Sequence record: NZ_CP124633.1
Length of the DNA: 64,000 bases
Direction: 5' to 3' (one strand)
From: a plasmid
This document shows, in pieces, positions 1-47,844 of the stretch. The stretch's first letter is position 1; each line of letters begins with the position of its first letter. Both the position numbers and the translations under genes were made by a program. The notes under the pieces are model-generated. The model made no database searches, was not told the origin of the DNA, and saw nothing but the letters and a program-made list of their open reading frames with translations.

Positions 1-1713
1 TGGTCTGGGTGTAGGCCGTCACCTGCACACCGGCGCCGCCCGCTTTGTTGACCATGGGGATGAACTCGTCGCCAATCAGCTCGTTGAACTCGTCGGCATG
101 CAGGTTGATGCGGACCTTGCCGCCGGCGAGCGAGCCGGGCAGGCCGTCATCGACTCCATGCTTGTAGATGTGACCCGCCACCGAGACCAGGTCGCTGAAC
201 ATGGAGTTGCCCACCGCGGCGGCGACCTCGGTATCCGATAGTGCGTCGAGGCCGACATAGACCACGGCGCGTTTGCGGATGACCTGCATCCAGTCGAAGA
301 TCGGCCGCGGATCGTTGAGGTCCGCGTAGTTGGGCGAAAGCAGCTCCGAGATCCGCCCAGTGGTGAGTTTCTCCAGCAGCGGCAGCAGCGAGGCCACGAT
401 CTTGTCGAAGTAGGTCTTGTCGTAGCGCACGGCGCTCTTCAGGCCTTCCATGACCGGGTCGGCGATGCGTTTCTGTGTCAGGTACTGGTCGATGGCCACG
501 ACCCGCAGGGGCCGTCCTTTCATGTTGAACGGGATGTTCTTGTCGTTGAGCTTGCCCTCGATCTGGATGATGGTGTCCCAGGCCCTGGGATCGTGCTCGC
601 TGATGTATTTCTGGGCATATTCGACGAACAACGCATCGATGTTCACGACGTGGCGGAGGATCTGTTGGTAGTCAGGCCGGATACCCAGCGCGTGCAGCGC
701 GCGGGCGATGATGTTGACGAACCGCCAGGCGAACTCGCGGAACGCCGCGCTGTTGCCTTCGCCGGAGAGCTGGCCGGCGACGCGGGTGGCGACCTCGGAG
801 ATCCGACCGAACCGGCCGACGGCGTTGTAGCGTGCCGACAGGTCAGGATGACCGAGGTGGAACACGTAGAACTCGTCCAGGCGGCTGGCACGTTCGCATT
901 CCACGTACATACGCTTGAGCAGGTCAGCGTCGCCTTTCGGGTCGAAGACGATCACCACCTCGTAGTCCGGCTGCTCCTCTGCGCGCCGGCGCCGGTGGCC
1001 GTGGTGAACCGTCTGGGTCCGCCGGCCCATCTTCGCCCGCCGGCGTCGGCCCCGGCAGTGGGTGCGGCGAATATCCTGGGTGATGAACAGCTCCGCGAGT
1101 CGCGTCTTACCCACCCGCGTAGTGCCGAGTACCAGTGTGTGGCCGACGCGCTCGCCCAGTTGTAGGCCTACGTCCTGTTCGCGCGGCTCGATGCCATGGA
1201 GCCTAGGCAAACCGCCCACGGGCGGCAGCGGCCGTGCGGGGTTCCAGGCCACGTCCCAGGCAGTGGCTTTGGTGACCAGCTTCAGGGGGAAAGGGGCGAA
1301 CTCAAGCTGCTTCTCCAGCCGGCGCGCGCGCTCGTAGAGCGGCGAGGGCTCGACGTAGGAGGCGAACTGGGGCAGGTAGGTATCTGCCAGGCGCTGCGTA
1401 TGCTTCTGCGTCCAGCGAAATCCTTTACCGATGAACAGGTGTTCGTTGCTGACCGGCATCTCGGCGCTGGTCATCGTGTACTTCGGCAGTCGGCGAATGT
1501 TCCGCCGGTAGCGGAGCACCACGCCGGCCTGCTTCAGCCGCACGATACCCAGCCAGGCGAAGCCCAGCGCGGCCACGATGCCGAACAGCGGAGTGAGGGC
1601 GAACGTCCACGGCGCGACGATGCAGAGCGCGGCCGCGGTGAAGCACACGGTGGTGGTGTAGAGCTCCACGGCAGGCCGCAAGAGCGCTTCCAGCGGGTAC
1701 TGGCCAGCCATGG
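1..1713 (-). CDS. traD: Type IV coupling protein TraD-like (ICE PFGI-1/pKLC102 class), N-terminal ~570 aa; C-terminus runs off window start
   Basis: Own minus-strand translation from ATG at 1713: MAGQYPLEALL..., two N-terminal TM helices, Walker A GTTRVGKT, YEVVIVFDPKGD motif; absent from ORF track because its stop lies outside the window. Confidence 0.8.
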
Positions 1714-41333: not shown

Positions 41334-41882
41334 CTACATGCCCACGGAACCAGGGCGGGTCTGACTCTGCTGCAGTCGGCCCATGAACTCGGCCTCGGCC
41401 TGGCCCATCTTTTCCGCGCACTCGGCGGCCTGCTTGCCGATGGAGTGGATCAGGCTGATCTGCATGTTGAGGGTGATGCGCTGCAGCTCCATCTCGTAGA
41501 GGTCTTGCAGCAGGTATTCCGGGGTCTTGTCCTGGCGCAGCATTTCCGCCCACACCCCGACGCCCATCCGCCGGGTTGCAATGTGCTGCCAGCGAAGAAA
41601 GGTGGTGCGGGCGGATGTGCGCTGCTCGATGAGTCGGGTGGGCAGTAGAGTGAAGGGTGGGCGACGAACCTGGGCCAGCAGTCCCTGGGCAAGTTCAAGC
41701 AATCCCTGCTCCAGGACTTCGCACTGTTCCGCCAACTGGGCCAGCTCCCCCTTACCTTTAAAAGGCTTTAAAAGGCCTTTTAGTGAGGCACTGTGTTGCA
41801 GCGCCTGGAAGGCAGTTTGTTGCAGTGGGCGGAAGGCACTTTGTTGCAGAGCGCCTTGCTGGTCCTTATCGAGCTGCCGCAT
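41334..41882 (-). CDS. hypothetical protein; N-terminal 40 codons coincide with a DNA repeat array (see 41735..41887), start may be downstream TTG
   Basis: ORF with GAGGA SD at 41882. Confidence 0.45.
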   Translation of the reverse strand: MRQLDKDQQGALQQSAFRPLQQTAFQALQHSASLKGLLKPFKGKGELAQLAEQCEVLEQGLLELAQGLLAQVRRPPFTLLPTRLIEQRTSARTTFLRWQHIATRRMGVGVWAEMLRQDKTPEYLLQDLYEMELQRITLNMQISLIHSIGKQAAECAEKMGQAEAEFMGRLQQSQTRPGSVGM

Positions 41883-41887: not shown

Positions 41888-42616
41888 TCAGTCCTCGAGC
41901 TCGACACGGTCAGCGTCATCATCGGCATCACTGTCAGAGCGGCCCCGGGTGATCGGCGGAGCGAAGTTCGAGCGTCGGGTGCCCTCCAGGATGTCCTGCG
42001 GGATCTCGCCGAACTTCTCGTACATCTTCCGCGCGGCTTCGGCGCGAGCATTGTTTGCGGCGAAGTCGTCGCGAGTAGCGCCCGAGAACTGGTAGCTCTG
42101 GGCCAGACCAAAGAGGCTGCGCAGCACCGACGCACCTTCGTCGAGCCAGACCTCCATGTCGCGGCGACCGACCAGCCCGACGTGCTGGGCCAGCAGGATT
42201 CGACGGGCGAGTTCGTCGTAGTTGGTCAGGAGATAGACTGCCTTGAAGCCGAGAGGGTTGGAGATGAACAACGGGACCTTGACCGGTGTGACGGACAGGT
42301 TCTCGGAGATATCGAGGGTCGCTGGCAGCTTGGCCATGACGTCATCCAGCCGCTGGTCGATGGCCTTGAGTGCGGCTTGGCAGATCTCGACTTTCTCTTC
42401 GATCTGAACCAGCCACCAGTCGGAGTACGGATCGTCCTGTGCCGCCCCGCGGTGCATGCGATTCACGTAGGCGCAGAAGCCGGAGAGGCCGAGGATGCTG
42501 TGCTTGGCATCCGACTTCTGCCTGCCTGTCCAGATGCGGGCGGCGTGATAGGTGTGAAGCGTCAGGGCGACATCGCTGCGGAGAGAGCCGATCTGAAGCC
42601 GATGGGTTTCAGCCAT
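41888..42616 (-). CDS. conserved ICE protein (TIGR03761-like)
   Basis: start MAETHRLQIGS with AAGGAAC SD. Confidence 0.5.
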   Translation of the reverse strand: MAETHRLQIGSLRSDVALTLHTYHAARIWTGRQKSDAKHSILGLSGFCAYVNRMHRGAAQDDPYSDWWLVQIEEKVEICQAALKAIDQRLDDVMAKLPATLDISENLSVTPVKVPLFISNPLGFKAVYLLTNYDELARRILLAQHVGLVGRRDMEVWLDEGASVLRSLFGLAQSYQFSGATRDDFAANNARAEAARKMYEKFGEIPQDILEGTRRSNFAPPITRGRSDSDADDDADRVELED

Positions 42617-42772
42617 GGTGCAGTGTTCCTTTATAGGGAAGGGGTTCGGCCACATCGTGCTGATCGGGGTAGGAGCGCGCAGTAGGAAATACATGGTTCG
42701 CCGCTGGGGTATTTCCGCTGGCAGTGCGGGTTCATCATCATCCCGCTTGCGGCTCATGGAGGTTGGCTTCCT

Positions 42773-42970
42773 TCAGCTCTTGGCCCCCTCGGGGGCGTTG
42801 TCTATCGCTACGTCGACGCAACTTTTGAGCTTGCCGAGCAGCTCGCTCAGTTCCTGCAGCTCCGTAAAGTCGATAGGCCATTCATCGTTGTCGTTGAATA
42901 GGGTTGCCAGCCCTAGCAGCCGCTCGAATTCGAGTTCGTCCATAGGGGCATACACGATTGAGTCGCACAT
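42773..42970 (-). CDS. small acidic protein (65 aa) immediately downstream of the 57-bp array, tentative
   Basis: MCDSIVYAPMDELEFERLLGLATLFNDNDEWPIDFTELQELSELLGKLKSCVDVAIDNAPEGAKS; AGGAA SD; non-repetitive, protein-like. Confidence 0.3.
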   Translation of the reverse strand: MCDSIVYAPMDELEFERLLGLATLFNDNDEWPIDFTELQELSELLGKLKSCVDVAIDNAPEGAKS

Positions 42971-43004
42971 CTTTTCGGTTCCTATTGGGTGGGAGAAGTT
43001 GATA

Positions 43005-43965
43005 GCCGCCACCGGCGCCGAAGTCAGTTCCTGGTGGAGTGGTTCCAGTGGAACCACCCAACTCGCCGCCGGCGCCGAAGTCAGTTCCTGGTGAAGTGGT
43101 TCCAGTGGAACCACCCAACTCGCCGTCGGCGCCGAAGTCAGTTCCTAGTGGAGTGGTTCCAGTGGAACCACCCAACTCGCCGCCGGCGCCGAAGTCAGTT
43201 CCTGGTGAAGTGGTGCCAGTGGCACCACCCAGCTCGTCGACGGCGCCGAGGCCTGGTCCTGGCGGAGTGTTGCCAGTGGCAACACCCAGCTCGCCGTCGG
43301 CGCCGAAGTCAGTTCCTGGTGAAGTGGTTCCAGTGGAACCACCCAACTCGCCACCGGCGCGGAGGTCGGTTCCTGGTGAAGTGGTGCCAGTGGCACCACC
43401 CAGCTCGTCGACGGCGCCGAGGCCTGGTCCTGGCGGAGTGTTGCCAGTGGCAACACCCAGCTCGTCGACGGCGCCGAGGCCTGGTCCTGGCGGAGTGTTG
43501 CCAGTGGCAACACCCAGCTCGCCGCCGGCGCTGGGGTCGGTCCCTGGTGGGGTGATTCCAGTGGAACCACCCAACTCGCCGTCGGCGCCGAAGTCAGTTC
43601 CTGGTGGAGTGGTTCCAGTGGAACCACCCAACTCGCCGCCGGCGCCGAAGTCAGTTCCTGGTGGAGTGGTTCCAGTGGAACCACCCAACTCGCCACCGGC
43701 GCGGAGGTCGGTTCCTGGTGAAGTGGTGCCAGTGGCACCACCCAGCTCGTCGACGGCGCCGAGGCCTGGTCCTGGCGGAGTGTTGCCAGTGGCACCACCC
43801 AGCTCGCCGCCGGCGCTGGGGTCGGTCCCTGGTGGGGTGATTCCAGTGGAATCACCCAACTCCTCGACGGCGCCGAGGTCGATCCTTGGCAGAGTGTTTC
43901 CACTGGAAACACCCAGTTCGCCACCGGTGCCGAGGTCAGGACCTGGCAGAGTGATGCGGGCCGCA
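43005..43965. repeat. ~17 tandem copies of a 57-bp repeat (unit ...GAAGTCAGTTCCTGGTGGAGTGGTTCCAGTGGAACCACCCAACTCGCCGCCGGCGCC); matches the sixteen-57-bp-repeat putative oriV described for pKLC102-type elements
   Basis: period counted directly; two frames on each strand stay open across it. Confidence 0.85.
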
Positions 43966-43999
43966 TCACCAAAAAACACGACGCCCGACCGAGACTTTC

Positions 44000-45331
44000 T
44001 CATGGCTCATCACCCCGCTCGGATGGCACGCTCGATCCGTGCCTGGGCCGAATGAGGTCCTTGAGCCGGCTGAGGACTTCGTTCCCTGTCCGGGTATCCC
44101 CCTTCGGCTGAACCTGAGGCTGTGTAGGCGTTGTGGGGCTTGGTGGTGCCGGAGCACGACTGGGGCGTTCCGCTGCTGGGATGGTTCGTTCAGCCGGTTC
44201 TTCCGGAGCCCAAGAAGCGTTGAACTTTCCCTGGACTGCACGCTGGATGAGCGTCATGAGGTAGCCGAACGGATTACCGACGGTTCCGCCGGCACATCGG
44301 TGCCGCCACTGCTCGATGATGGGTAGCCGAAGCTCCTCGGACACCCGTCGGAGCGCGCTTACCGCCTGGAACCGTTGCTCGCCCTCCAGTCCGTTCAGGA
44401 GATCCTGCCAGTTCGGATGTGCTTCCTCGCGTGTTCGCGGTTGTACTGGTTTTTTAAATACAGAATCTTGTTTGTATGTATACGTACTATATGAGTTCGG
44501 CATCCGAACCAAGGGCGTACTCGGCGGATTCTGTCTGGGTTCGGCATCCGAACTCAGCGGTAAAGCGCATTGCTTGCCGCTGATTTCACTGAGTTCGGCA
44601 TCCGAACTCGGGGTTGAATGAGGTAGATCGGGCAGAGTTCGGATGCCGAACTCTGCCGCTGGATCTGCTTCGAGCTGACTATCGATAGCCCATTGCTGGT
44701 GGTTCAAGCGTCCCTCGAGCTTCTCCAGATGGGTTGGGAGGCGGCGACCAACGTCCGGGTCATCCCTGAACTCCCGCCATGTGACCTGGCCGATTTCGCG
44801 TATGGCTCGGTTGCTGTCGCCGGTGGACTGGCTCAGCAACTGCATGTAGTCGGGGTCCAGCTCCAGGGCTTCTGCCGGGGATACCGGTTCGTCGTGGAGG
44901 ATGTAGACGTTGCCCTGTACTTGCCCGTTGAGGTCGTTGCGCAGGCGACGGCCGAGACTGAGCCAGCGTGTCAACCGAAGGACCTTGAGTGCCTTGGCGA
45001 TGGTTTCGCGCGAGGCGATCTTACCCGGCTGCATGCCGAGATAAGGGCGTAGTTGCTCGTATGTAGGGAACGCGGTCAGCCCGTCGTCGTTGATGAGCAA
45101 GCGGAACACTTGCCAGCAGTTCCGCTCCAGCGGGGTGAGGCGTTTATCCAGCAGCAGGCGCCGAGGAACGGTTTCATGCGGGTTGCCGCTGAAAATGATG
45201 CCGGAATATTGTTGAGCCAGCGGTTCGCCGCTCTCGGCATCAAGCCGCTTCTTAAACAAGTGGGCCTCGAGATGTCCCGAGGCCGAGTCCAGCAGAGTCG
45301 AAATGGGAAAGCGCGACAGCCTCATTGTCAT
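44000..45331 (-). CDS. STY4528-like ICE replication-initiator protein
   Basis: 443-aa ORF, N-terminal wHTH domain, low-complexity linker, conserved C-domain ...NPFGYLMTLIQRAV... Confidence 0.6.
   Translation of the reverse strand: MTMRLSRFPISTLLDSASGHLEAHLFKKRLDAESGEPLAQQYSGIIFSGNPHETVPRRLLLDKRLTPLERNCWQVFRLLINDDGLTAFPTYEQLRPYLGMQPGKIASRETIAKALKVLRLTRWLSLGRRLRNDLNGQVQGNVYILHDEPVSPAEALELDPDYMQLLSQSTGDSNRAIREIGQVTWREFRDDPDVGRRLPTHLEKLEGRLNHQQWAIDSQLEADPAAEFGIRTLPDLPHSTPSSDAELSEISGKQCALPLSSDAEPRQNPPSTPLVRMPNSYSTYTYKQDSVFKKPVQPRTREEAHPNWQDLLNGLEGEQRFQAVSALRRVSEELRLPIIEQWRHRCAGGTVGNPFGYLMTLIQRAVQGKFNASWAPEEPAERTIPAAERPSRAPAPPSPTTPTQPQVQPKGDTRTGNEVLSRLKDLIRPRHGSSVPSERGDEP
44408..44655. promoter_or_regulatory. 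origin-like module inside the rep ORF: 45-bp AT-rich tract (44446..44490) plus four GAGTTCGG-CAT/ATG-CCGAACTC palindromes at 44486, 44539, 44593, 44637
   Basis: read directly; arms 6-11 bp, spacing 53/54/44 bp. Confidence 0.45.
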
Positions 45332-46083
45332 GGTGTCGTATCGCCTTCGGACTGAACCAGGTTGAGGAGTTGCTGCTGCGCAGACTCAATCTCCAAGCGG
45401 GGGCTCTGTGGCGGGTGAGCCGTAGGCGAGGGGAGGTGAGCGCTGACGTTGGCCAGGTAAAGGGTGGCGGGCTTGGCCTGTTCTTTCCTGTTTGGTTGGT
45501 AGAGGCTGTCTTTCAACCAGCTCTGGATGAGAGACCAAACGATGGCGAGGCTGATGAACTCTGGACTGTCTTGTTCGACTCCGGCGTTGACTTCCTCGGT
45601 GAGGATCATCGCGATGTCCAGCAACTCCATGCTGTCCTCGAGGCGGACCTGGTTTTCCTGCATCAGGTGCTCCCAGCGGAACCAAATCTGGCGTTCGGTC
45701 TGTTCGTCAAGTTGCCGCCAGCGACCGCGGCGCGGGTGGATCTCCAGGATCAAGCGCTTGGTGGCGGTGTCCTCCGGCGACAGACCGAAAAAGCTCTGAA
45801 TCATCGTTGTGGTGGCTCCCAGCTTCAGTGCGCGTTCGATCTGCAGCTCTTCCTGCGCGCTGCGCTCGGCTGTGGCCAGGATTTTCTCCATGACGTCGAT
45901 GTTCACTCTGACGTCTACCCAAGAAACCGGGGTATTGGTCAGGATGCTCATGACGGCGGGCTGTTGGAGCTGGGCCAGGATCTCCGGCCGCAGTCCCATC
46001 TCGGCACAACGCCTGAGCTGGCCGTTGCGCAGGTGGTTGATCACCTGCGTCAGGACCGCTTCATTGATCAACGACTTCGACAT
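45328..46083 (-). CDS. DUF2857-like ICE protein
   Basis: 251-aa ORF, ATGA coupling. Confidence 0.5.
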   Translation of the reverse strand: MSKSLINEAVLTQVINHLRNGQLRRCAEMGLRPEILAQLQQPAVMSILTNTPVSWVDVRVNIDVMEKILATAERSAQEELQIERALKLGATTTMIQSFFGLSPEDTATKRLILEIHPRRGRWRQLDEQTERQIWFRWEHLMQENQVRLEDSMELLDIAMILTEEVNAGVEQDSPEFISLAIVWSLIQSWLKDSLYQPNRKEQAKPATLYLANVSAHLPSPTAHPPQSPRLEIESAQQQLLNLVQSEGDTTP

Positions 46084-46110: not shown

Positions 46111-47844
46111 TCACTGGTCGGTAGCTGCTTGCTCGGAGGCGGCCGGCGGCAGCTCAAGGTCAACCAGACGTCGGGCAAGACGAATTATCCGGAACAGTTT
46201 CACCAGGGCTTCGTCATTGAGACGGCCTGCCTGGCTGGATGGCTGATCGCCTGTGGTGGGTTGGCCCAGCAGCAACTGAGCGAGGCCAGCTGAGAATTGA
46301 AACTCGCCCAGGGCGTCGCGGCAGGTCTGCTGGTCGTGTGAGTTCAGGACGACTTGGACCTGGCCGCTGAGCGCTTGAAGCAGCGTGATGAGGTGCAGCG
46401 CTGAATCAGTAATCTCAGGGTCTTCATTGGGCTCGCGATACGTGTAACCCACACCGCCCTGGATCCTGACGATCTCGCCTGGGGCGCCGACGTGCAGAGC
46501 GATTTCTTCAGCCAGATCAGCGATGTGCTGTCGCAGGATTTCGGAGGTGTCGATCGACCGCTCGATGTACCAGAGGTCGGTGATCGGGTGCAGGCCGCCG
46601 ACTTGCACCGGGATTGCGTGAAGAGCTGTTTCTTCGAAGACAGGTAGATGTTCACCCTCGAGAGCGGCCAGACGTTGGCGAGTCTGCAGGATCTTGGTCG
46701 ATACCGGACTCACGATATGGCCTGCCAAGAGCGCTGCATGCTCCTCATCGGTCAGTTGCTGCTGTTGTACAGGTAGCGGCGGAGTTGGCGGGGTAGAGGG
46801 ATTACCCGGGAGGCTATTGGTCTTGGACGTTTGGAGGCCGGCAGCGGGGCTCTGTGATTGTGCTTGTCCAGTAGTCGACGCGGCAGGACTTTCCTGCCCT
46901 ACTGGTGGGATTTCAGGTGGTGCGGCAGGTGCGGGCAGGTCGACCAGAGTGCCCCGGCGCTGTTCCTGCTGGCCGTTGGTGATCTCGAGCAGGATCTGGT
47001 CATAACGCAGGCCCAGGGGCCGCTTCATCTGATCGATGAGCTCGTCCTGGAAGCGGTCGAATATGAACTCGTCAGGGCTACTGTCGAAGATTGCCAGCGT
47101 GTCCTGGAACAGCATTTCAAAGTCAATCCCTTCACCGGCGTATAGACGTGCCCAGCAGGAGGATGCCGACTTTCTGAGTGACAGGAGTTTTTCGATTTGC
47201 GGTTTACCGAGCCCTGAATACAGCATCACAGGGATGGCTGGCAGCAGTATCTCAACGGCATCCAGCATCTTGCTGATGTGTGAATGTGAAACAGGATAGC
47301 CGTCATCGGTGAGCTTCCGTGACAGCTCGCGGATGCCGACCGGTTCGCCTTTCTCCTCCTCATACCAGGCTTTCGCTTTCTGAATGCCCACGGCTCGCTC
47401 GATGAACTTGAGGTCACCCTTCAGATCGTTCTCAGCCAGGTGACCAGTCAGCGCGATGATTTCGCCGCGCTGCTTGTCCCAGGGCCTGAACAGGCAGTTG
47501 AAGCGGAAGTAACGTTCGTCGCCGGTTTCTTTGTAGAGCTCGTTGAGAATTTCCAGGCGAGTGTTTCCGCCGTTGCGAATGCGGTATTTGTCTTCCCCAG
47601 GGCGTCGAGTCACTGGTGGCGGCGTATCGAGGCCTCGATGCCGGATCGATTCTTTCAACTCATCGTATTTCGGGTTTCGAGTGGTCCGGGGGTTGTCGTG
47701 CCAGGGGAGGACCTGGTCGAGTGTCAGCACCATGGGCGTGTCGCTGATCGGGTCCGACAACTGTTCCAGAACGGGCGGCGCGGTGAAACCAGGGGCAAGT
47801 AGCCGGTCTTTCAGATCTTGCGGGTTGATCTTGGCCATACTCAT
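46111..47844 (-). CDS. parB: ParB-family partition / nuclease-domain protein (PFGI-1 class)
   Basis: 577 aa, N-terminal ParB-like domain ...KYRIRNGGNTRLEILNELY. Confidence 0.75.
   Translation of the reverse strand: MSMAKINPQDLKDRLLAPGFTAPPVLEQLSDPISDTPMVLTLDQVLPWHDNPRTTRNPKYDELKESIRHRGLDTPPPVTRRPGEDKYRIRNGGNTRLEILNELYKETGDERYFRFNCLFRPWDKQRGEIIALTGHLAENDLKGDLKFIERAVGIQKAKAWYEEEKGEPVGIRELSRKLTDDGYPVSHSHISKMLDAVEILLPAIPVMLYSGLGKPQIEKLLSLRKSASSCWARLYAGEGIDFEMLFQDTLAIFDSSPDEFIFDRFQDELIDQMKRPLGLRYDQILLEITNGQQEQRRGTLVDLPAPAAPPEIPPVGQESPAASTTGQAQSQSPAAGLQTSKTNSLPGNPSTPPTPPLPVQQQQLTDEEHAALLAGHIVSPVSTKILQTRQRLAALEGEHLPVFEETALHAIPVQVGGLHPITDLWYIERSIDTSEILRQHIADLAEEIALHVGAPGEIVRIQGGVGYTYREPNEDPEITDSALHLITLLQALSGQVQVVLNSHDQQTCRDALGEFQFSAGLAQLLLGQPTTGDQPSSQAGRLNDEALVKLFRIIRLARRLVDLELPPAASEQAATDQ

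Follow-up and report, generated by a model that had tools for sequence, protein, structure and literature searches.

The 64,000-nt stretch of plasmid DNA analyzed here (sequence record NZ_CP124633.1; "the window" below) belongs to the pKLC102/PAPI-1 family of ICEs (integrative and conjugative elements), with 93.5% identity to pKLC102 (NC_019202) and 97.9% identity to pUM505. In Pseudomonas aeruginosa, islands of the pKLC102/PAPI-1 type disseminate genes for virulence and resistance, and a repeat that they carry has been annotated as a replication origin for two decades. In the window, this repeat is a tandem array at 43007..43969 that begins 30 nt past the stop codon of a gene of the STY4528 family (rep for short). 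The gene order around it is ParB, DUF2857, STY4528, the array, AcaB/PFL_4669 family, DUF3158, Rha-type regulator, and ssb.

The Tandem Repeats Finder (TRF) program detected a single array at 43007..43953, with a period of 57 bp, 16.6 copies, 84% matches, and no indels. Every 57-bp unit contains one dyad-symmetric core, located at 43039 + 57k; there are 17 such cores, the final one being GTGATGCGGGCCGCATCAC at 43951..43969. The first-pass annotation of this locus had listed a 57-bp array of ~17 copies, which both the TRF output and the core count bear out. The cores, of the form GGGTGGTTCCACTGGAACCACTC, have an 8-3-8 layout (8-bp arms around 3 central bases), with arm variants GTGTTGCC..GGCAACAC and GTGATGCG..CGCATCAC, and can be extended to 11-1-11, as in GGGTGATTCCAcTGGAATCACCC, where 11-bp arms flank a single central base. 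A degenerate version of the core pattern matched the window 21 times versus 2.3 matches expected, a number reached in none of the 100 shuffles. Seventeen of the 21 matches were exact, all of them within the array, and the pattern scan found no exact core outside the array anywhere in the 64-kb window. The GC content of the array is 63 to 67%, and that of the consensus 57-mer is 67%.

The STY4528-family gene (44000..45331, minus strand), labeled "replication protein," was assigned to the NCBIfam family NF040582 (E = 3e-111) and, judging also from the synteny with the ICEclc-like locus L060, is a homologue of ICEclc orf96323. Profile searches and PDB sequence searches revealed no Pfam or PDB relatives of its product. 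The AlphaFold2 (AF2) model of this protein is poor (predicted local distance difference test score [pLDDT] of 51.7), with residues 195 to 306 disordered, and a fold search was dropped for that reason. The adjacent DUF2857 gene (45328..46083, minus strand; Pfam PF11198) encodes a BisC homologue, 37% identical (E = 5e-44) to the product of the open reading frame (ORF) in the BisC position of L060. Next to it, the 577-aa ParB-family protein (46111..47844, minus strand; TIGR03764) shares 43% identity across its entire length (E = 8e-131) with the product of the ORF in the BisD position of L060, and is proposed below as the binder of the array. Its GGNTR sequence, an instance of the CTP-binding GxxR motif, aligns with R95 (GNTR, GxxR) of that ORF, as published. 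Downstream of the array, the first gene is a member of the AcaB/PFL_4669 family (41888..42616, minus strand; PF08900, TIGR03761) and occupies the place that inrR has in ICEclc; the context of its start codon, AAGGA...ATGGCTGA, is conserved. The same ORF has an in-frame upstream ATG at 42757, preceded by GAAGGAAG and located 15 nt after the stop codon of a small acidic ORF described below; some annotations use the resulting 289-aa form, which would make translation nearly continuous from rep.

The first-pass annotation had further matched the array to the repeat of pKLC102 and proposed a comparison of copy numbers across isolates. The match is borne out on sequence, since NC_019202 contains 16 such units in the homologous place. 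The comparison yielded 8 units in pY89, 11 in Pseudomonas paraeruginosa ATCC 9027, 13 in a Taiwanese megaplasmid, and the 16 of pKLC102; genomes with the exact rep allele of the window have 17 units wherever the assembly spans the array.

Palindromic cores as predicted BisD-loading sites

The neighborhood comprising bisD, bisC/DUF2857, orf96323/STY4528, the sites, inrR/AcaB-like, DUF3158, and ssb is shared with ICEclc, in which the genes are arranged in the order alpA-parA-shi-bisD-bisC-orf96323-orf95213-inrR. BisD of ICEclc is a ParB-like, CTP-dependent clamp that loads at the parS-like site bisS (Antar et al., NAR 2025, PMC12409273). The bisS sequence, GAGCTATCCCCnGGGGATAGCTC, is an 11-bp inverted repeat with one central base, found at two sites 2 kb apart, of which bisS-1 is reported in inrR and bisS-2 in ssb (PMC12409273). 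Loading of BisD has been shown experimentally in ICEclc by foci and chromatin immunoprecipitation (ChIP) and by site-stimulated CTP hydrolysis, and the sites bind BisD on their own, without orf96323 (PMC12409273). The clamp spreads ~50 kb along the direction of transcription, and activation of the transfer-competence promoters follows from its action together with BisC; no foci were obtained with a third palindrome, CTTCGGAtTCCGAAG, which lies inside orf96323 (PMC12409273). The bisDC genes have been conserved in ICEs of P. aeruginosa, where they are functional.

The current search also recovered a set of ICEclc-like loci (L057 to L082) with the same gene order as ICEclc. The exact published bisS is present in 17 ICEclc-like loci, and in 13 of these it is found 177 nt past the stop codon of the orf96323 homologue and again ~2.0 kb downstream, in agreement with the two BisD-bound sites 2 kb apart (PMC12409273). 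A copy of bisS with one mismatch is located at +46 from the same stop codon. Across other loci, a graded series of variants connects bisS to the core of the window. The proximal and distal sites of one element carry the identical variant (L075, L060), a pattern characteristic of sites read by one common trans-acting factor.

The sites of the window occupy the same position as those of ICEclc and have the same type of long dyad with an odd center, up to 11 + 1 + 11 bp. The differences are of several kinds. ICEclc has two sites at this position and one near ssb, whereas the window has 17 tandem copies at a 57-bp spacing and pKLC102-type elements in general have 8 to 17 tandem sites. The arms have diverged, with only ~6 of 11 positions shared, and they vary symmetrically; a coupled ORF runs through the array; and binding in the window is predicted from sequence. 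Given the same neighborhood, position, and architecture, along with the BisD and BisC homologues encoded nearby, the array is read here as a putative bisS-like loading platform. The AcaB-like protein is another possible binder of the array, because AcaB-like proteins are activators of the ribbon-helix-helix (RHH) type, but there is better support for the BisD homologue in this role.

The comparison set consisted of 80 loci that encode relatives of the STY4528-family protein with 38 to 96% identity. Nearly all of them have arrays or pairs of palindromes 3' of the STY4528-family stop codon, and palindromes of this kind sit directly downstream of the gene in nearly all of ~70 loci. Copy number (2 to 25), spacing (25 to 132 bp), and spacer sequence all vary among related loci, and spacers of different lineages are unrelated; the array periods in the relatives are 36, 39, 56, 57, 58, 60, 70, 78 to 81, 100, 101, and 141 bp, and the pairs are 132 bp apart. 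Nevertheless, every unit contains the GTGnTnCn-N3-nGnAnCAC core (a 19- to 23-bp palindrome) or its kin, such as GCTATCCCCnGGGGATAGC. In two loci (L054 and L055), the STY4528-family gene has its stop codon within a type II palindrome, ATGATTCCAGTGGAATCAC, so that the ATGA overlap discussed below is part of the core there.

Covariation was analyzed in 45 distinct register-defined 57-nt units from five elements of the P. aeruginosa type. The arms pair in 98.1% of cells, compared to 31 to 53% in the slid controls, and double-sided changes are seen at 3 of the 8 arm pairs (51 cells); none of the 500 shuffles reached these values. Arm positions 1 to 3, 5, and 7 are invariant, and positions 4, 6, and 8 vary symmetrically. 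Preservation of the core despite the variable period and spacers, combined with the covarying arms, argues that the feature under selection is the DNA dyad and neither the 57-mer nor the peptide that could be translated from it.

Symmetric variation at positions 4, 6, and 8, which preserves base pairing but not the sequence, would also be expected if the arms acted as single-strand hairpins, either as mRNA stem-loops, which would affect stability or translation rate, or as sites for priming or SSB handling in the single-stranded DNA of the transferred or lagging strand. Every unit folds as this model predicts (z-scores of -4.3 for RNA and -5.5 for DNA, with none of the 200 shuffles as good), and ssb and other DNA-handling genes are encoded nearby. 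However, single mismatches in the arms are G.T and A.C about equally often (27 and 20, respectively), so that wobble pairs are not enriched and neither strand is favored, which places the constraint at the level of the duplex. In addition, the sequence invariance of the five other arm positions is typical of protein recognition, no Rfam match reached the gathering score, and the homologous site of ICEclc works as duplex DNA with BisD (PMC12409273). Functional hairpins are therefore considered very unlikely. Selection specific to RNA hairpins was rejected, as there was no G.U excess, and so was membership in a known RNA family, since Rfam returned only spurious microRNA models, none of them near the gathering score.

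A structural parallel to the array is provided by sopC, the centromere of the F plasmid, which consists of 12 units of 43 bp with an inverted repeat in each unit and is bound by a ParB-type protein. Both are tandem direct repeats with one dyad site per unit for a ParB-family protein encoded nearby. In contrast to the window, where the arms covary and the array is an open coupled frame, sopC is noncoding and its units are near identical; unlike the protein of the sopC system, the ParB homologue of the window carries an activator domain for transcription control. Each GGTTCCACTGGAACC core also resembles the chromosomal parS, TGTTCCACGTGGAACA, minus one base pair, and this likeness is a lead that the ParB of the host might bind the array as well. 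Half-parS heptamers GTTYCAC number 19 in the window, of which 7 are inside the array (43048..43681).

The oriV assignment

In their 2004 description of pKLC102, Klockgether et al. reportedly gave the name oriV to "16 highly conserved 57-bp direct repeats," a count that agrees with the sequence of NC_019202. That origin and the putative oriV of PFGI-1, made of 46-bp repeats that each contain a 21-bp inverted repeat and located upstream of PFL_4669 (PMC2647930), map to the same locus as the array of the window. In both cases the origin was inferred from sequence only, and in pKLC102, which reaches up to 30 episomal copies, oriV was still "postulated" in 2020 (PMC7685784); the present evidence points instead to loading sites for a ParB-type clamp.

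If the array were a vegetative origin of the iteron type, its 57-bp direct repeats would be bound by the STY4528-family protein and would serve theta replication of episomal pKLC102. Such an arrangement fits the adjacency of tandem direct repeats to a gene that NCBIfam names a replication protein, the description of the PFGI-1 region, and the high episomal copy number, as well as the presence, 450 to 650 bp away in the STY4528 gene, of a dip rich in AT and of further palindromes that form a second conserved set. It is harder to reconcile with the conserved element being a 19- to 23-bp dyad at spacings of 25 to 132 bp rather than a fixed direct repeat, with the GC-rich composition of the array itself, or with the STY4528-family protein having no detectable relation to known initiators in Pfam, in the PDB, or through its poor AF2 model. 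There is no GC-skew switch at the array: the skew is positive in 30 of the 32 2-kb bins, without a lasting change of sign, although this test is weak at the given size. No DnaA box (with ≤1 mismatch) was found within 7 kb of the array. In ICEclc, the homologous sites bind BisD without orf96323 (see above), and the excised element replicates via the relaxase TraI and oriT1 (PMC6561031). An iteron-type origin is thus unlikely. The suggestion that the array corresponds to the putative oriV of pKLC102 holds with respect to the locus; no computed result supports the origin function. The one-sided GC skew of the window would fit either unidirectional (rolling-circle or transfer-type) replication or a purely transcriptional bias.

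Three palindromes of the GAGTTCGG-N3-CCGAACTC form are located at 44537..44653, inside the STY4528 ORF, where they occur in two codon phases, encode EFGxRT or SSDAELS according to the phase, and fall into the predicted disordered stretch of the protein. They adjoin the AT-rich dip, a 60-bp segment (44440..44499) with a GC content of 0.30, also inside the STY4528 ORF and 470 bp from the array. These palindromes are kept in all Pseudomonas-type loci and absent from the ICEclc-like loci, and correspond to the "23-bp palindrome" counted within the oriV of PFGI-1 (PMC2647930). They could be the counterpart of the "bisS-3" candidate of ICEclc or an origin-like module; if an origin-like module exists, the inside of the STY4528 gene is a better candidate for it than the array.

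The "oriV" label is not supported, and in the best-supported reading the array is a variant of the ICEclc system described in 2025. Should this be true, the assumed replication module of a large ICE family would need to be re-read, along with the MOB-suite typing of "rep_cluster_322" and the name "STY4528 family replication protein." The number of sites (8 to 17 in the P. aeruginosa-type elements) would then be a candidate dial for the activation of transfer competence or for the positioning of the episome.

The reading frame coupled to the STY4528-family gene

On the minus strand, a 373-aa ORF (ORF373; 42882..44003) reads through all 17 units of the array. Its ATG (44003..44001) overlaps the stop codon of rep (44000..44002) in an ATGA sequence, its repeat is a 19-aa unit of the GELGGSTGTTPPGTDFGAG type, and the array accounts for ~85% of its length; both the overlapping start and the 19-aa repeat had been predicted correctly. 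ORF373 ends 43 codons beyond the array, inside the small acidic ORF (42773..42970, minus strand) but in a different frame. The frame that runs into this acidic segment, as also noted previously, is the other minus-strand one. The claim of two frames open across the array on each strand was correct for one frame per strand: the only fully stop-free frames are that of ORF373 and a 338-aa frame on the plus strand. The second minus-strand frame, in phase with the acidic ORF, contains a single stop codon (TAG, 43142..43144), and the second plus-strand frame contains two. As many as 5 of the 6 frames are open in the consensus 57-mer, but at least 5 are open in 25% of the composition-matched shuffles (the mode is 4), and open frames as such were rejected as evidence of coding, being at chance level at 67% GC. 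Gene callers disagree over this region: an antisense 335-aa ORF (43039..44055, plus strand) is annotated in several NCBI assemblies (L086, L087, L089, and L090), other records call the ATGA-coupled ORF, and nothing is annotated in the RefSeq version of pKLC102.

Better evidence comes from relatives with arrays that start within 150 nt of the upstream stop codon (33 rep-proximal arrays). The frame equivalent to that of ORF373 is stop-free in 27 of the 33, compared to 10 for the mirror frame on the other strand, which sees the palindrome identically (p = 5e-5), and in only 1 of the 13 rep-distal arrays (p = 5e-6 versus the proximal ones); both p-values are optimistic because the loci are phylogenetically nonindependent. 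Summed over 12.9 kb, there are 18 stop codons in the ORF373-equivalent frame versus 79 to 183 in the others. The agreement in frame openness extends over several lineages with unrelated spacers. In most proximal loci, the coupled ORF starts with an ATG or TTG that overlaps the upstream stop codon (NTGA), despite the differing C termini of the upstream proteins. Its end lies exactly 8 nt past the ATG of the downstream gene (ATGGCTGA) in 12 loci, which include the 36-bp and 39-bp groups and one 57-bp group, and 7 nt before the downstream ATG in two more. The unique leader and tail segments contain 0 or 1 stop codon in the frame of the ORF and 2 to 4 in the other five frames; the probability of zero stops in shuffled leaders and tails is 0.01 to 0.22 per locus. 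The coupled ORF is annotated by the NCBI Prokaryotic Genome Annotation Pipeline (PGAP) in pY89, and many database proteins have this form. The question posed by the first-pass annotation, whether the array is also translated, thus finds a partial answer, in that the coupled frame is kept open in relatives, whereas the open frames on which the suggestion was based are explained by chance.

In the 13 rep-distal loci, an inserted membrane-protein gene separates the upstream gene from the array; these arrays have stop codons in all frames, and their periods are often not multiples of three (58, 70, or 80 bp, for example). The persistence of arrays without an open frame indicates that translation is not indispensable. 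The inserted genes are of two kinds. In L006, L007, L012 to L014, L028, and L052 (positions 0..712 after the rep stop codon), the product is a membrane protein of ~249 aa, and the start of its gene lies 8 nt before the point where the rep stop codon ends (ATGAGTGA); in L004, L008, L029, and L031 (positions 16..409), it is a membrane protein of ~130 aa.

The acidic ORF encodes 65 aa (56 aa as called by PGAP) and is fused in frame to the coupled ORF elsewhere. In pY89, PGAP calls a 246-aa protein that begins at the rep stop codon and has the acidic domain at its end, in L003 a 313-aa coupled ORF is fused to it, and many P. aeruginosa database proteins of 180 to 208 aa consist of the leader, repeats, and acidic domain. 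Junction typing by alignment placed the difference in an A-run (42972..42975, minus strand) that has four A residues in the window and pKLC102 and three in L003; the extra A in the window, pKLC102, and many genomes puts the acidic ORF in the +1 frame, so that it would need a start of its own. An AGGA sequence is found 9 nt upstream of its ATG at 42970. Within P. aeruginosa, fused as well as unfused versions are common, and in the metagenomic protein P0160 an internal frame switch in the array restores the fusion. Fusion to the acidic domain is, on this evidence, a common but dispensable feature, and the difference between A3 and A4 resembles an ordinary polymorphic indel. A programmed +1 frameshift at CGA-AAA-G that would join ORF373 to the acidic ORF was considered and dropped, as the A4 run is too short and no signal was found. 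Searches of Pfam, NCBIfam, and the PDB revealed no homologue of known function for the acidic ORF.

Taken together, these data make it reasonably probable that the array is an amplified set of bisS/parS-like sites for loading of the BisD clamp, placed inside an ORF that is kept open and probably translated. The BisD homologue, a predicted CTP clamp, would load at the one dyad site in each 57-bp unit and move along the element by sliding; acting jointly with the BisC homologue, it would turn on the promoters for transfer competence, and it might also help position the excised element. Ribosomes starting at the ATGA on the STY4528 stop codon would read through the array and produce a peptide whose sequence is set by the DNA sites. 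Ribosome passage is probably selected and the peptide is not, and the repeat peptide looks like a tolerated by-product dictated by the sites. The favored guess is that reading of the frame would allow transcription and translation to continue through ~1 kb of binding sites inside the operon; it might, for instance, avoid an untranslated, Rho-sensitive kilobase there. No promoter or terminator consensus was found between rep and the downstream gene, which is weak evidence, and in ICEclc a single transcript has been mapped from alpA to orf96323.

A stronger version of this proposal, in which the clamp-loading platform is obligatorily translated and the frame is selected all the way from the orf96323-type stop codon to the inrR-type start codon, appears doubtful. 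Under this version, coupled transcription and translation would push or clear the BisD-type clamps along the direction of transcription or prevent Rho termination over ~1 kb, so that firing of the alpA-bisDC operon would be tied to clamp loading and downstream activation. The repeat polypeptide would again be a tolerated by-product, with its length tracking the number of sites.

Several observations weigh against the interpretation of the array as BisD-loading sites within a translated frame. In addition to the limited similarity of the arms to bisS, a scan for cores in the 64-kb window did not find a second, distal site near ssb; such a site may not necessarily be defining, as the array supplies 17 sites. 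Binding of the BisD homologue to the array, translation of the ORF, and the reason why translation would matter are what we infer. A single sequence-specific binder does not explain the symmetric variation at arm positions 4, 6, and 8 within one array, for which a hairpin or cruciform state and the correction of quasi-palindromes are possible causes. With ~30 episomal copies, pKLC102 must have some origin, and this region could still play a role in it. As for translation, the argument is a comparative one among nonindependent loci, and the 13 rep-distal arrays, as well as those in L010, L024, L027, L049, L057, and L077, persist without an open frame. Unit variants show no codon periodicity, their entropy by codon position (1, 2, 3) being 0.52, 0.545, and 0.505, and none was found in the tails of the ORFs either. 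Differing codons comprise 245 nonsynonymous and 83 synonymous changes (245/328, 75%), and the GC content of ORF373 by codon position is 0.69, 0.69, and 0.56, compared to the third-position values (GC3) of 0.66 to 0.79 in the neighboring genes; the third position thus has the lowest value of the three, unlike in the flanking genes. In the window and in pKLC102, the coupled ORF and the acidic domain are in different frames; in L095 (3869..4441), from a P. aeruginosa genome, a 56-bp unit shifts the frame and truncates the coupled ORF at 190 aa. Finally, inrR of ICEclc has its own promoter, so that the coupling is not obviously needed.

The codon data bear equally on the converse possibility, that selection acts on a genuine protein made of 19-aa Gly/Thr/Pro repeats, which in some strains has an acidic domain at its C terminus, and that the palindromes are incidental. 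The coupled start and the maintained frame would suit such a protein, as would the acidic-domain fusions in pY89, L003, and many database entries and the metagenomic variant that restores the fusion via an internal frameshift. However, palindromes persist in arrays with a period of 58, 70, or 80 bp in which no frame is free of stop codons, the compensatory changes in the DNA alter amino acids, leader and tail peptides are unrelated between lineages, and the fusion is broken in pKLC102 itself. The excess of nonsynonymous differences and the lack of periodicity also speak against it, and searches of Pfam, NCBIfam, and the PDB gave no relatives of the protein. No purifying selection was found on the peptide or on its tail, and a selected repeat protein can be considered extremely improbable.

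The unusual property that the window would add to the ICEclc system is, then, a translationally coupled frame that appears to be maintained while its product is free to vary. Cis-acting sites within coding sequence have a precedent in the lambda ori iterons, which sit inside gene O. These iterons, bisS-1 and bisS-2, and the array are all dyad protein-binding sites that are (in the window, predicted to be) read by ribosomes, and the stretch they code for is poorly constrained or disordered. In contrast to these precedents, ~85% of the ORF in the window consists of binding sites. Conservation of the frame offers a testable case of DNA that would be selected both as protein-binding sites and as a translatable sequence, with the product unconstrained. 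Placement of the array in an ORF would also explain why gene callers arrive at the coupled ORF, the antisense ORF, or nothing.

Two further repeats were seen in the DUF3158 gene. A 24-bp tandem repeat with 2.7 copies (41786..41849) was detected by TRF in its N-terminal part, and the same repeat is present in most related loci. The sequence CTTTAAAAGGCTTTAAAAG at 41756..41774 (10 bp x 2), which lies within the DUF3158 motif LKGLLKPFKGKG, is kept at the same place in distant relatives.

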